Virus record (IMG/VR): IMGVR_UViG_3300012275_000045
Direction: 5' to 3' (one strand)
From: a virus
Taxonomy: Duplodnaviria; Heunggongvirae; Uroviricota; Caudoviricetes
DNA: 5,835 nt
Shown: positions 2,053 through 5,835 of the stretch, piece by piece
Layout: every line of letters begins with the position of its first letter
Position numbering within the stretch: the stretch's first letter is position 1
Position numbers and translations under genes: made by a program
Notes under the pieces: model-generated
Told to the model about the DNA's origin: nothing
Databases searched by the model: none
Seen by the model: only the letters and a program-made list of their open reading frames with translations

Positions 2053-2250
2053 ATGCTAAAACAAACTGAAAGTAATATACCGGACTTGTAAAGGAACGAT
2101 AGAATAATTATTGGATTAAACCCTGACTCAATCCAGATTTCATAGGCAACAACTACGGACTAATCATCACAGTCATGTTTGATAGACTTAGTCCACATTG
2201 GGTGAGGGTTTACGGCGTTTTCACTAATAATTTATCGTCCAAGCTATACA

Positions 2251-2643
2251 CTACTGCCCTGTTTTAACGAAGTTTTTAAAGGAAACAACTGCCTGATAGG
2301 GGTTTGGTTGACAGCCAAACATATTATCGCAAAAAGGCTTGATGAAAATTCTTGAGGATCCATCTTCATTTGGCATTTTACTCACTTGATAAGCGAGGAA
2401 TGGACTATTTGGAGAGGGATTATAAGTGGAAATTAGCGTGTCTGTCGCCGTTTGAATTTTCCATGAGGAATTATTAGCCAACCAGAATTGCGCTCGTTTC
2501 CAATAAAAGTCACATTGCTTTTCATCATTACATGTTAGTGGCTTCATTGCTTCTGCTTTCAACGCTGGATCGACCTTTGCTGCACACCCTCCCAACATTA
2601 CTGTTGCAATCATTACACCTGCGACTAAAACAAGTTTCTTCAT
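2251..2643 (-). CDS. Putative Cys-rich lipoprotein (prophage moron), function unknown
   Basis: 130-aa ORF. N-terminus MKKLVLVAGVMIATVMLGGC has a typical signal peptide with lipobox-like LGGC (Cys20). The mature part has four further Cys (CNDEKQC and CDNMFGC). The gene is visibly AT-rich relative to the flanking nin genes and sits between two terminator-like elements that share a 12-mer. A GGGAG lies immediately upstream of the ATG with unusually short spacing. Confidence 0.7.
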   Translation of the reverse strand: MKKLVLVAGVMIATVMLGGCAAKVDPALKAEAMKPLTCNDEKQCDFYWKRAQFWLANNSSWKIQTATDTLISTYNPSPNSPFLAYQVSKMPNEDGSSRIFIKPFCDNMFGCQPNPYQAVVSFKNFVKTGQ

Positions 2644-2694
2644 CTCCCTGCCCCATCAATAAAAGTTCGGTTCTCTAATAACTAGAGTTAATCA

Positions 2695-2717
2695 ACGGAA
2701 AAAACGCCGAAGCGGGT
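2695..2717 (-). terminator. Degenerate terminator-like element at the 3' end of the hok transcript
   Basis: Minus-strand RNA reads AACCCGC-UUCG-GCG-UUUUUU. It shares the 12-mer gccgaagcgggt (plus strand 2706-2717) with the terminator at 2041-2052, but the stem is only 3 bp. It lies about 70 nt downstream of the hok stop. Confidence 0.35.
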
Positions 2718-2786
2718 TAAGTGCGGGTGCGTTGAGGATGCCTGACACATCAGAGGTGGCGAGGGATTTCTCCCCCGCCAGGTCTC

Positions 2787-2942
2787 TTACTCCTCAGGTT
2801 CGTAAGCTGTGAAGACAGCGACCTCCGTCTGGCCGGTTCGGATTCGTACCTCGCAGAGGTCTTTCCTCGTTACCAGTGCCGTCACAATGACGGTTAAACA
2901 GATGACGATCAGGGCGATTAACATCGCCTTTTGCTGCTTCAT
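2787..2942 (-). CDS. hokD: Hok/Gef-family type I toxin (HokD/RelF-like), 51 aa
   Basis: Translation MKQQKAMLIALIVICLTVIVTALVTRKDLCEVRIRTGQTEVAVFTAYEPEE: single TM helix plus the conserved RKxLCEV..R.G..EVAAF/VF motif of Hok/Gef, and it matches my recollection of E. coli HokD/RelF. AAGGAG lies 9 nt upstream of ATG 2942..2940. There is no relB/relE upstream, unlike the K-12 relBEF operon. Confidence 0.9.
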   Translation of the reverse strand: MKQQKAMLIALIVICLTVIVTALVTRKDLCEVRIRTGQTEVAVFTAYEPEE

Positions 2943-2999
2943 AGCCTGCTTCTCCTTGCCTTTCGGCACGTAAGAGGCTAACCTAGATTTGCCGTTCAT
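2787..2999 (-). CDS. mok: Mok-like in-frame N-terminally extended reading frame (modulator of hok translation), 70 codons
   Basis: In-frame upstream ATG at 2999..2997 with GAGG 7 nt upstream. The extension MNGKSRLASYVPKGKEKQA resembles the basic K/E-rich extension of chromosomal Mok proteins as I recall them (e.g. MokC ...RKVKEKRAMKQHK). Mok/hok overlap is the standard architecture of hok/sok loci. Confidence 0.5.
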   Translation of the reverse strand: MNGKSRLASYVPKGKEKQAMKQQKAMLIALIVICLTVIVTALVTRKDLCEVRIRTGQTEVAVFTAYEPEE

Positions 3000-3153
3000 A
3001 GATTGAGCCTCAGATTAATGTTAAGCGTCTTGCAGGACGCGTAATGTTAACTGGGGCTTTTCTCTATCTGCCTTTGGTGTTCATGCCTGAGACAGATAGC
3101 CTCAAGCACCCGCAGCCATTCTACTTAACTCCCGTTACCTCGCCAATATGAAA

Positions 3154-3243
3154 TCAGTCAGAAAGGCGATCCATAAGAACAACAGCAAGGCAATAAATTG
3201 CCATTACAGCAGCAATAGCCAGCGCACATTTGAGAACCAGCAC
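3154..3243 (-). CDS. Candidate small hydrophobic membrane peptide (29 codons), possible type I toxin-like or leader peptide
   Basis: Perfect AGGAGG (3254..3249), 5-nt spacer, GTG start at 3243..3241, TGA stop at 3156..3154. Hand translation: (M)LVLKCALAIAAVMAIYCLAVVLMDRLSD, about 23 hydrophobic residues then an acidic/polar tail. Not in the ORF track because it is below the length cutoff. No homolog recognised. Confidence 0.3.
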   Translation of the reverse strand: MLVLKCALAIAAVMAIYCLAVVLMDRLSD

Positions 3244-3736
3244 CACAACCTCCTGTATTGGACGTACATCAGTCCTGATAAATATGAGGCTGTCTCGTCA
3301 GTGATTCAATACAACTATTGGGTATAGTTTCTGTGATTTTGTTCTGTAGAAATGGAACACAATAACCAGTCACCACCAGCACTTCTTTAAATACGCCAAG
3401 TCCGACGCAAGCTAACCTTCTAGCCCACTTTGAGCGAGAAGCAGACATTTACTTAACTGGATAGCAAGAGACTTCATATATCATGGTTGATCCCGGAGTT
3501 TTCAATAATGGAAAGACATTGCCCGTATGATCGGGCCGTAACCACATTAGAAGCAGGTGCCCTTTGTGAATTTTGATTGTGTCAACCTATCTGTTTTGAA
3601 TTTTTTATAAAAAATATTCGCAAATTTGTGAATTATGAGAGACAAACGAGCATGGACAACCAATGTTACTTTCATACACAATGAAGCAACATGATAAAAG
3701 TACACTGACTTTAGCAAGTAAATTTAGGAGATTGCG

Positions 3737-5071
3737 ATGTTTAGCTTAATCATGGCCGGAGAACCGGACGTTTTTGACCGCTGGCCGTGTATGGACCCAG
3801 GGCTTACAGAAGGCGAGGAAAGATTCTCGATGTCCCGCATGCTGGAAGGCACCCCAAGCGATATTTACAGTAAATTAACACCAATAAGACCCGATACCTT
3901 AAGAGAACTCGCCAAGCTACCAGTATTGTTCATGACCGAAACTTATACAAAAGATGATGAATATGATACAAACAAGTACATCAGGATCAGACTTGGGGAA
4001 ATAAGAAATTTACGTAAAGATGGTGGCGATATTTTATTTTCTTTCAAGATTAATCATAATTTTGGAGAAATAACGAATCCCCAAACGACATTATATAAAG
4101 AAACCCTAGGGCTAGGATCTTTCGGGTTAAGCCGTACACATTGGGCAGTAAAAAATAAGGATTTAAATATTGTTCTGGAATCACTTGGTTTAAACAAACA
4201 AAATAGTCACCTCAAAGGTACAATCAAATTAAAAAAACAAACATACCCAGTAGTCGAGAATATTATAGATTATCTTAATTTCATAAAGAAAAACTTTCGT
4301 GATGGTCTCATTACCTTTTATCGTGGACACTCTAAAAGCTCATATGAGCTTGTCCCCTCTCTTTACAGAAAAAATCAAAACGGGACGTACAGGCATCTTG
4401 CTTCAGAATCTGATTTAGTACGTGAAATACTCAGCGCAAGACCAAATGAATTTAAGGAGGATAAATTTACGATTGATAAACTTGTCCGCATGCAGCATTA
4501 TGGCTTGCCTACAAGACTCTTAGACATTACATCTAACCCACTGATAGCATTATATTTTGCTTGCTGTTCGAACCCCAATGAAAACGGACAGGTGATTTCG
4601 TTTTCAACAAATAGAAAGAAAATTAAATATTTCGACTCAGATACAGTGAGCTGTATAGCAAACTTATCTCTTTTATCTTACGAAGAGTTGGAAAAATTGT
4701 CCTCCTCTGATTCCAGAAAAGGTAATATGGAGTTATCTGAACTCACTGATAAACTTGCAGACCTTATACAGAATGAAAAATCATATTTTAGAAACAGAAT
4801 AATTCCTGATGACTTAAGGAAAGTTGTTTTCCTTAAGGCTAAAATAAATAATGAACGCATACAATCTCAGGCAGGAGCTTTTCTTCTGTTCGGACTTGAT
4901 CCCATTTTACCGGAAACAGATGCTGAGTTTCCTCTTAACAGAGTGGAGATAGCGAACAAAAATAAAATTCTGGAAGAGCTGGCGCAGCTTAATATATCCG
5001 AAAGCACTGTATATCCCAGCATGGAGAAAACGGCAGCAGAAATTAAAAAAAAGTTTTTATCGGTATCATAA
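3737..5071 (+). CDS. FRG-domain protein (444 aa) with an uncharacterised ~190-aa N-terminal region; candidate anti-phage / abortive-infection effector
   Basis: Long ORF in very AT-rich DNA, where random ORFs this long are improbable. TAGGAG (3725-3730) lies 6 nt upstream of ATG 3737; an alternative start is ATG 3830, preceded by GAGGAA. Residues 194-197 FYRG followed by ...YELVPSLYR..., and residues 253-275 QHYGLPTRLLDITSNPLIALYFA, match the FRG domain signature (Pfam FRG, PF08867) as I remember it. C-terminal part is charged and coiled-coil-like (EELEKLSSSD...LADLIQNEK). Only gene on the plus strand in the window, with non-coding DNA on both sides. Confidence 0.85.
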   Translation: MFSLIMAGEPDVFDRWPCMDPGLTEGEERFSMSRMLEGTPSDIYSKLTPIRPDTLRELAKLPVLFMTETYTKDDEYDTNKYIRIRLGEIRNLRKDGGDILFSFKINHNFGEITNPQTTLYKETLGLGSFGLSRTHWAVKNKDLNIVLESLGLNKQNSHLKGTIKLKKQTYPVVENIIDYLNFIKKNFRDGLITFYRGHSKSSYELVPSLYRKNQNGTYRHLASESDLVREILSARPNEFKEDKFTIDKLVRMQHYGLPTRLLDITSNPLIALYFACCSNPNENGQVISFSTNRKKIKYFDSDTVSCIANLSLLSYEELEKLSSSDSRKGNMELSELTDKLADLIQNEKSYFRNRIIPDDLRKVVFLKAKINNERIQSQAGAFLLFGLDPILPETDAEFPLNRVEIANKNKILEELAQLNISESTVYPSMEKTAAEIKKKFLSVS

Positions 5072-5098
5072 AGGGATAAACTAAAGGCAACGAAAACT

Positions 5099-5114
5099 AA
5101 GACTGCGCAGTCTT
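5099..5114 (-). terminator. Palindromic hairpin, weak candidate terminator for minus-strand transcription between the convergent 5310..5732 and FRG genes
   Basis: aagactgcgcagtctt is a perfect 16-nt palindrome (6-bp AT-rich stem, GCGC loop). On the minus strand it is followed by AGUUUUCGUUGCCUUUAGUUU (U-rich); on the plus strand no U-tract follows. The stem is weak, so confidence is low. Confidence 0.3.
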
Positions 5115-5309
5115 CAGATGGAAGTGCTCATTGGGAACGGTTTCAGGGGCAAAAACTGGAAGTTCCAGTGGGCCTTGAGCTGCTCCCTATAAATTAACAT
5201 ATCTCAATGTTATCAATGTCTGCTTTTGGCACAAAGCGGACAACCACGCTAGCTCTACCCTGTGCCACAAAATGTCAATTTACATCTGAACTAATGCACT
5301 TTAATCTCG

Positions 5310-5732
5310 TCACTTCAAAAAATACCGAACATCCCCCTGATAAAACGACAATATCCGCTGCATAACTTCGCTTTTACGACACTCAGTACAAATTATATTA
5401 TGACGCCTGTCGTAACGACGTATTTCTCCATCAGGTAATGACCAGATAAGGTCCGGATCAACCGCAGATGGTTTCTTCAGCTTTGCCCTTGAGAGCTTTT
5501 TACGGGCATTTTGCCAGTCCTTACGCGCCTGTTCAGACGGGAATAACCCGTAACCAGAGTTGTATACATCGCCGCTGGCAACCAGCTCTCTTGCGAGAAC
5601 GCTCATCAGATATCTTGTCGCACCTGTCTTGACTTCCAGTTGCCGTAACGTCTCACGCCCACTCTGGCGTACGAGTTCAACAACCTGCCCTTTAATTTTT
5701 TCTCGCTCTTCTTGTGTAAAAACTTTTGCCAC
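5310..5732 (-). CDS. Hypothetical prophage protein, 140 aa, basic C-terminal half
   Basis: ORF-track ORF. Start is GTG at 5732..5730 with a perfect AGGAGG 4 nt upstream (taattttcAGGAGGactt-GTG). Protein MAKVFTQEEREKIKGQVVELVRQSGRETLRQLEVKTGATRYLMSVLARELVASGDVY... then a lysine/arginine-rich region (ARKKLSRAKLKKPS) and a single CTEC motif. No family recognised. Confidence 0.65.
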   Translation of the reverse strand: MAKVFTQEEREKIKGQVVELVRQSGRETLRQLEVKTGATRYLMSVLARELVASGDVYNSGYGLFPSEQARKDWQNARKKLSRAKLKKPSAVDPDLIWSLPDGEIRRYDRRHNIICTECRKSEVMQRILSFYQGDVRYFLK

Positions 5733-5835
5733 AAGTCCTCCTGAAAATTACCTCATGACCAGAAATCAACACTTACCCCCTGAAGCCCGGTGGAATTTCG
5801 GTATCTGGTTCAGAAATGTGATTCACGCAACGCTG

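Follow-up and report, generated by a model that had tools for sequence, protein, structure and literature searches.

The type I toxin-antitoxin systems most closely related to the locus described here are hokW-sokW of Sakai prophage 5 (Sp5), the Shiga toxin 2 (Stx2) phage VT2-Sakai, and hok/sok (parB) of plasmid R1, which is the paradigm of the family. HokW is toxic and localised to the inner membrane, and it is counteracted, partly via RNase III and Hfq, by sokW, an RNA detected by Northern blot and reported to have 71 nt complementary to the hokW 5' untranslated region (UTR) (PMC8621323). The neutralisation of Hok toxicity by Sok and the differing stabilities of the two RNAs (stable hok mRNA, labile Sok) were demonstrated for hokW-sokW (PMC8621323) as well as for R1, whose hok mRNA adopts metastable, full-length closed and truncated open states (PMC9841398). 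The DNA studied here, referred to as the window, is a stretch of 5,835 nt from a virus of the Caudoviricetes (IMG/VR record IMGVR_UViG_3300012275_000045). At 2697-3146, with a probability estimated at about 0.9, it holds a complete and self-contained hok/mok/sok cassette of the hokD/hokW lineage from the nin (early-right) region of a lambdoid Escherichia coli prophage. The system is already known, being the commonest form in E. coli prophages, and the copy is an ordinary one with no novelty.

The cassettes of the window and of hokW-sokW share ~93% of their DNA sequence. The sok promoter and the mRNA elements tac, ucb, dcb and fbi are identical in the two loci, and the Sok stem-loops differ by one loop base. 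Both are hosted by lambdoid prophages and encode toxins of 51 aa that agree in residues 1-44, and both have an in-frame mok of 70 codons, which is annotated as orf74 in Sp5. In contrast, the C-terminus of Hok is TAYEPEE in the window and VDYESEK in HokW, the sequences 3' of fbi are unrelated, and the window copy lies in the nin region whereas the Sp5 copy lies near the right prophage end. Differences were found also at 8 of the 18 variable positions of the Sok tail and mok start, which read TCAATCT-ATG-AACGGCAAATC in the window and TCAATCC-ATG-CTGAACACATG in Sp5.

The Hok protein of the window, encoded by a minus-strand open reading frame (ORF), is identical to HokD of K-12, and the coding sequences differ by one synonymous substitution. 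The Pfam profile PF01848 (HOK_GEF) matched Hok with an E-value of 3e-23 and 81.6 bits (cut-off 22) over 42 of 42 profile positions, and PHROG 251, 'MokW-like host killing', matched at 2.8e-33. These matches place the protein in the Hok/Gef family of small (~50 aa) toxins with a single membrane pass. The scores of the NCBIfam models for Hok subfamilies stayed under the curated cut-offs (48.5 vs 73); such scores are usual for subfamily-specific models. PADLOC contained no model matching Hok or Mok. An earlier description of the window made from its letters (the sequence-only reading) had regarded hok (51 aa) and its in-frame Mok extension (70 aa) as intact and both starts as provided with good Shine-Dalgarno (SD) sequences; the ORF check and Pfam agreed with the former, and GAGG and GGAG were found in front of the mok and hok starts, respectively.

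As a separate observation, the Tyr47 codon UAC of hok (2801-2807, minus strand) is situated within UUACGAA, which contains a UACG motif. In hokB, UACG is A-to-I edited by TadA with the conversion of Tyr to Cys, and the same is said to hold for hokC, hokD and hokE (bioRxiv 10.1101/2025.08.07.668861). The Sp5, Rac-like and hokC-type loci all keep the TACGAA around Tyr47. Presentation of the motif in a tRNA-Arg-like hairpin was considered and rejected, as the local fold was no better than those of shuffles (z = +0.4; all z scores are relative to shuffles), and UACG is reported here as a sequence motif.

The region 2650-3150 was 100% identical in DNA to chromosomal loci annotated as hokD in RefSeq. 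Of 5426 complete E. coli genomes, 4943 contained matches to this region, at 2 places per genome as the median and 10 as the maximum; 102 phage records, the Stx phages of O157 Sakai among them, matched it as well. Among the phage copies listed, the Hok sequence of the window was the most frequent variant (56 of 111). Only hokD was annotated under the match in all 25 E. coli matches listed; the one RefSeq record inspected, AR_0077, gives the hokD coding sequence as the sole annotation at the locus and omits mok, sok and the regulatory RNA elements. Near-identical hokD cassettes of the E. coli type (91-100%) were also observed on very short contigs assigned to Acinetobacter idrijaensis, Xanthomonas pisi and a Candidatus Scatousia metagenome-assembled genome, and a further such cassette occurred in the 'Actinobacillus phage' record PP818812. 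In these distant taxa, contamination or misassignment seems more likely than true transfer.

The leader of hok was matched by RF01794, 'sok', the only Rfam family above threshold, with 110 bits (gathering score 59) and an E-value of 3.6e-25. Model positions 1-157 of 157 were aligned to the minus strand at 3111-2937 with one 16-nt insertion, which falls in a hairpin loop. The covariance search suggested by the sequence-only reading was thereby successful, with the match on the hok-sense strand. The RF01794 consensus starts with GGGUGCUUGAGG and ends with an AUG aligned to the hok start codon; therefore, the model represents the hok mRNA leader, and the Sok gene lies inside it on the opposite strand. 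A family which is named 'sok' and matches the hok-sense strand may mislead automated assignment of the antitoxin strand. In a permissive Rfam search of 2600-3250, three sub-threshold matches were obtained beyond RF01794, and no model matched the plus strand. The three (ceN48, fungal SRP and isrK, the last with 16 bits vs a gathering score of 50) were taken as chance.

The hok promoter was the sole sigma-70-like site called in 2600-3300 by a consensus scan. Its -10 hexamer ends 6 nt before 3111, where the Rfam model starts, and GTTAAGTAGAAT is conserved in Sp5 and Rac-like phage loci. The extent previously proposed for the locus, 2695-3070, was too short, since the mRNA starts at ~3111 and the promoter reaches 3146. 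At the putative 3' end of the mRNA a CGC-UUCG-GCG hairpin is followed by U6; the hairpin is weak (z = -0.17), a clear intrinsic terminator was not accepted, and the 3' end is given as approximate.

The mok frame overlaps hok, has its own SD and is open to the hok stop codon, and translational coupling of the two may be expected by analogy. In an alignment of 25 leaders from Escherichia, Shigella, Kluyvera, Pseudocitrobacter and phages, the mok SD GAGG was invariant and the mok start position was homologous in 24. Fourteen leaders had the window's spacing of 57 nt between the mok and hok ATG codons; in nine others it was 58 nt (+1 frame) and in the remaining two 56 nt, and 105 of the 111 phage copies listed again had 57 nt. 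An in-frame mok is not unusual and is the norm for the hokD/hokW lineage. The frame relation between mok and hok is not conserved, which fits Mok acting via its translation and not via its sequence.

The sok promoter of the window is identical to that of Sp5 sokW from the -35 through the -10 hexamer. In the Sp5 locus, primer YO-421 changes the hok-sense TAGGTTAGCC to CCGGCTCGCC, which destroys TAACCT of the Sok strand (Takada et al. 2021, PMC8621323). The promoter-less sokW mutant lost the protection against HokW, and sokW supplied in trans partly restored it (PMC8621323). The sequence-only reading had assumed a plus-strand sok promoter inside mok, composed of TTGCCT (2956-2961) and either TAACCT (2979-2984) or TAGATT (2984-2989); these motifs, together with the repeats and the hairpin considered below, were all located at those positions. 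The combination of TTGCCT and TAACCT is favoured by the homology to sokW. TAGATT, separated from TTGCCT by 22 nt, was discarded in favour of TAACCT, which is spaced by 17 nt and was the hexamer mutated in sokW. In the predicted Sok RNA, a single-stranded 5' tail (~2991-3004), which can pair with the mok start region, is followed by a long stem-loop and then by a U-rich stretch (3058-3065); the fold has -33.3 kcal/mol (z = -5.7). By sequence and predicted folding, Sok would be a cis-encoded antisense RNA with its promoter within mok, a tail complementary to the mok start and a terminator hairpin.

The folds of the hok mRNA were obtained as minimum-free-energy (MFE) predictions. The full-length transcript (3111 to 2697) folded at -164 kcal/mol (z = -7.1), with nt 1-12 (tac) paired to fbi in a 12-bp duplex of -21.5 kcal/mol and ucb paired to the mok SD. 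After removal of the last 45 nt, a stem between tac and ucb and a hairpin of the mok SD with dcb, containing the mok AUG, were predicted instead (z = -6.1); the Sok-target hairpin folded at -14.7 kcal/mol (z = -3.6). In the nascent 35 nt, tac was locked in a separate hairpin (-16.9 kcal/mol, z = -4.0). The pairing of fbi, tac and ucb, which the sequence-only reading had proposed to check by folding, was predicted in this way for both the full-length and the truncated mRNA. The three predicted folds reproduce the R1 states and suggest that long-range pairing and a refolding switch are both available to the mRNA of the window.

The predicted structures were in correlation with the alignment of the 25 leaders. 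The truncated-form structure was paired in 83% of cells, compared with 31-51% when the partners were slid by 1-3 columns, and two-sided changes were found at seven pairs. A box complementary to tac was present 45-56 nt (mostly 48-49 nt) past the stop codon in 23 of 25 scored loci. In the Kluyvera group, the change of GAGG to GAGA in tac is matched by that of CCUC to UCUC in fbi, a compensatory replacement of G-C by A-U. The coordinates of the elements are given in Table 1.

Table 1. Elements of the hok/mok/sok cassette in the window.
Element	Position	Strand	Description
hok promoter	3118..3146	-	-35 TTGGCG (3146-3141), 17-nt spacer, -10 TAGAAT (3123-3118)
Full-length hok mRNA	2697..3111	-	~415 nt; 5' end from promoter and Rfam model start, 3' end approximate
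tac GGGUGCUUGAGG	3100..3111	-	mRNA 5' end; predicted to pair with fbi (full-length mRNA), with ucb (3'-truncated mRNA) and in a metastable 5' hairpin (nascent mRNA)
ucb / anti-SD AAGCCCC	3053..3059	-	predicted to pair with mok SD (full-length fold) or tac (truncated fold); matches the R1 model (PMC9841398)
mok SD GAGG	3008..3011	-	8 nt before mok ATG (2999); from sequence
mok reading frame	2787..2999	-	70 codons, in frame with hok; 19 additional N-terminal codons
dcb AGCCUC	2974..2979	-	predicted partner of the mok SD within the Sok-target hairpin (2974-3011), consistent with the Rfam consensus structure
hok (hokD) toxin gene	2787..2942	-	51 aa; SD GGAG (2952-2955) 9 nt before hok ATG
fbi CCUCAACGCACCC	2725..2737	-	3' UTR; predicted to pair with tac
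sok promoter	2956..2984	+	-35 TTGCCT (2956-2961), 17-nt spacer, -10 TAACCT (2979-2984); inside mok; by homology to sokW
Predicted Sok RNA	2991..3065	+	~72-75 nt; start ~7 nt past the -10; ends approximate
Sok terminator stem-loop	3005..3059	+	55 nt; contains both TAATGTTAA copies; from the Sok fold

The architecture of the window cassette, its three predicted RNA states, the sok promoter inside mok and the order of a 5' tail and a terminator hairpin in Sok are shared with R1 hok/sok. Unlike the window cassette, R1 hok/sok is plasmid-borne and has a proven role in post-segregational killing, and its Hok is 44% identical to HokW, the near relative of the window toxin. The mok of R1 is in the +1 frame relative to hok with a spacing of 58 nt, whereas that of the window is in frame (57 nt), and the Sok stem-loop of the window has an additional GC-rich apex of 16 nt. 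The chromosomal hokC (gef)/mokC-type loci resemble the window in the in-frame mok with the 57-nt spacing (L023 and others), in the tac, ucb and fbi sequences, which are the same, and in ~80% Hok identity. They differ by the absence of the 16-18-nt apical Sok hairpin, by the arm sequences and by the location in the chromosomal backbone and not in a prophage.

By homology and the predicted folds, the cassette would function as follows. A constitutive minus-strand promoter would give the hok mRNA, whose 5' tac would be locked in the metastable hairpin during synthesis. In the finished transcript, tac would pair with fbi of the 3' UTR and ucb would sequester the mok SD, making the mRNA stable, untranslatable and not bound by Sok. 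Slow trimming of the 3' end would remove fbi, after which tac would pair with ucb and the mok SD would shift into the dcb target hairpin. The translation of mok would then drive that of hok, here in the same frame. The short-lived Sok, transcribed from the plus strand (TTGCCT-17-TAACCT), would block this step by pairing of its 5' tail with the mok start region and degradation of the duplex. When the supply of Sok ends, the reservoir of hok mRNA would be translated, and the 51-aa Hok would insert into the inner membrane and damage or kill the cell. By analogy with hokW-sokW and R1, the window copy would be expressed and its product toxic.

The only direct experiment on this lineage was performed with hokW-sokW of Sp5. 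After the addition of mitomycin C, sokW vanished and HokW appeared in a RecA-dependent manner, and in the hokW-sokW deletion the growth arrest occurred ~40 min later and the phage release was halved (PMC8621323). By analogy, the most likely role of the cassette in a lysogen would be firing on prophage induction, which would result in a faster growth arrest, lysis and phage release. Silencing of sok by convergent transcription, due to read-through of the induced early-right operon, is plausible in the window, as hok points in the same direction as the DUF977, DUF968, RusA and Q genes; it was not adopted, as it misfits Sp5, in which hokW is outside nin and antisense to late genes.

Several points weigh against this picture of an intact cassette with a role in induction. 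The Sp5 hokW is found near the right prophage end and not in the nin region, so the role determined there may not transfer. For the copy in the window the support comes from sequence and homology, and the hok and Sok folds are MFE predictions and not probing data. Where the hok mRNA ends on its 3' side is poorly defined, and the homology to Sp5 stops just past fbi. In the -10 of sok only 3 of 6 positions agree with the sigma-70 consensus, and both the sok promoter and the Sok terminator were missed by the consensus scan. With such a -10 and a bulged stem, the assignment of Sok rests therefore on homology and folding.

Prophage addiction and abortive infection, the roles proposed in the sequence-only reading, are possible as well. 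Addiction as the main role is somewhat unlikely: upon prophage loss the unstable Sok would be lost, the stable hok mRNA would stay and the cell would die, by which the prophage would be stabilised. For the R1 homologue such a role is established, the window shares its RNA switch elements, and hok genes are about fourfold enriched in prophages. However, chromosomal hok loci reportedly failed in post-segregational killing assays, and the hokW-sokW deletion was without effect on the growth of the lysogen under normal conditions (PMC8621323). The multiple matching places per genome (median 2, maximum 10) also speak against addiction, as Sok copies of the same class could cross-rescue one another; these counts do not separate the classes.

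A main role in abortive infection, in which a lytic phage would stop host transcription, Sok would decay and Hok would kill the cell before the phage cycle is completed, is unlikely. R1 hok/sok on a high-copy plasmid reportedly cut the T4 plating efficiency by 42% and plaque size by ~85%. A neighbouring gene is a candidate defence gene (FRG-domain, PDC-S15 2.7e-99), and a DUF977 protein farther along is labelled 'Ren-like exclusion protein' by PHROG. Against this, no enrichment of hok beside defence systems was found in a large survey, the R1 effect was modest and obtained from a high-copy plasmid, and the FRG neighbour occurred in 28 of 5426 genomes, so that the association is not conserved.

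It is quite improbable that the cassette, intact in appearance, is physiologically silent, carried along as a remnant which is never triggered, like the K-12 chromosomal hok loci. In earlier work, native chromosomal hokA, hokB and hokC reportedly gave no post-segregational killing and no activation by rifampicin, and the sok and hok promoters of the window are only moderate matches to the consensus. In contrast, all the regulatory elements are present and conserved with compensatory changes, the Hok sequence is the commonest one among the phage variants listed, and the 93%-identical hokW-sokW is active as a toxin-antitoxin pair with an induction phenotype (PMC8621323).

The sequence-only reading had described a repeat-hairpin-repeat element in the leader. 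Such an arrangement is present: the 9-mer TAATGTTAA occurs twice in the entire window (3016-3024 and 3042-3050), forming the sole direct-repeat family in 2690-3150, and flanks GCGTC-TTGCAG-GACGC at 3025-3040. Its status as a separate leader element was not retained, as by the predicted fold it is the body of the Sok stem-loop. The apex of Sok folds as GCGUCU-UGCA-GGACGC, and the arms UUAAUGUUA (3015-3023) and UAAUGUUAA (3042-3050), offset by 1, pair in a 9-bp helix including two G·U wobbles. Since the arm sequence is nearly its own complement, the two G·U pairs complete the helix, and the arms at the same time look like a direct repeat. The helix is weaker in the hok-sense strand, where C·A mismatches take the place of the G·U pairs. 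The 16-nt apex, an insertion relative to the Rfam consensus, was missing from hokC-type leaders and present in 17 of 17 hokD/hokW-type leaders, with one compensatory change of G-C to A-U (L025); judged from these sequences, the Sok hairpin carries it as a lineage-specific extension. An independent element at 3016-3050 outside Sok, either an inserted miniature repeat or a protein-binding site, is hardly credible: the GC hairpin is an insertion compared with the Rfam consensus and hokC-type leaders and the perfect 9-mer repeat superficially resembles a target-site duplication, but the 9-mers pair with each other in the Sok strand and continue a stem that ends in the U-tract, hokC-type loci without the insert still form a hairpin at that position, the segment including the apex is nearly invariant in the 120 phage copies listed (loci L059-L178) while the adjacent segments vary, and the exact 16-mer was found in the leader only, in 9 of the 57 hok loci searched, a search which covered no hok-free sequence.

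The conserved block corresponds approximately to the transcription unit, as the homology to other phages and genomes starts at ~2698-2715 and ends at ~3131-3176. In a comparison of ~110 phage contigs with the window at 2100-3750, the ~430-bp cassette formed a conserved island between at least 29 upstream and at least 18 downstream flank classes (600 nt on each side). The slot upstream of hok is occupied by relBE in K-12, by QueH in AR_0077 and by the FRG-domain gene, on the opposite strand, in the window. This gene (3737-5071, plus strand) codes for a 444-aa protein with a Pfam PF08867 match of 2.7e-22, besides the PADLOC match mentioned above. It is AT-rich (33-37% GC), oriented against the phage early genes and looks like a moron; the genomes counted for its arrangement had at least 80% of 3150-5835 covered. 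The DUF977 protein (5310-5732, minus strand; Pfam 4e-29, PHROG 7.3e-45) is possibly another exclusion gene in the early-right operon.

At the place of rem in K-12, between hok and the DUF968 gene, the minus strand has two ORFs: a 130-aa ORF (2251-2643) with the lipoprotein-like N-terminus MKKLVLVAGVMIATVMLGGC, matching phrog_16082, and a 119-aa ORF (1676-2035), matching phrog_1212. Upstream of the cassette, a hydrophobic ORF of 30 codons (3154-3246, minus strand), VVLVLKCALAIAAVMAIYCLAVVLMDRLSD, has an AGGAGG SD 5 nt before its GTG start and ends 8 nt before the -35 of hok. It is kept only in phage Evi and in the Candidatus Scatousia contig, and it had no match in NCBIfam or PADLOC, the two libraries scanned. 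It could be an unannotated small membrane protein or occur by chance. As a fourth component of the cassette it was rejected, since it is conserved in just 2 of the loci compared and the homology of most loci ends at 3131-3176. Two runs of 10 N, which are masked bases (346-355 and 1315-1324), break the RusA-like and DUF968 ORFs and appear as XXXX in the translations.

In the Qin cryptic prophage of K-12, the gene order is ydfU-rem-hokD-relE-relB, with relE directly upstream of hokD (relF). The coding region and the 3' UTR, including fbi, are nearly identical in K-12 and the window, and both loci lie in a prophage upstream of the DUF968 (ydfU) gene, followed in the window and AR_0077 also by RusA and Q. 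The two sequences are homologous over a stretch that begins 17 nt upstream of the hok ATG and includes fbi and the terminal stem-loop; further upstream they are unrelated. K-12 hokD is therefore without the mok start, sok, ucb, tac and the hok promoter; its upstream side is filled by relE-relB, whereas the window holds all the upstream elements. The absence of relBE noticed in the sequence-only reading is consistent with this comparison. As judged by sequence, the window represents the ancestral intact form relative to K-12 hokD. It would serve as a clean reference for what K-12 has lost; the truncated hokD of K-12 probably arose from such an intact locus via the relBE junction.

Variation in hokD-type leaders was highest in the 5' hairpin loop and in the 11 nt past the mok ATG. 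The 7 and 11 nt flanking the mok ATG (3000-3006 and 2986-2996) formed at least 19 classes among the 120 phage copies listed, with the rest of Sok nearly invariant. The class of the window was the second commonest (18 of the 120) and differed from all the others at no fewer than 7 of the 18 positions. The variable positions are the complement of the Sok 5' tail and of the bases just upstream of the Sok start. Differences in this segment are usual between co-resident copies: the three in Shigella flexneri CP182556 all differ, as do 2 of 3 same-genome phage pairs. It is tentatively proposed, as a possibility which may well turn out wrong, that the ~18 variable nucleotides form a discrete specificity code preventing cross-protection among co-resident hokD-type cassettes. 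The segment consists of loop and tail positions that are unpaired and of mok codons under weak constraint, and relaxed constraint alone could account for much of its variation. If the specificity code holds, the Sok of the window would not neutralise hokW or the other classes, and the up to 10 copies per genome would act as independent switches.

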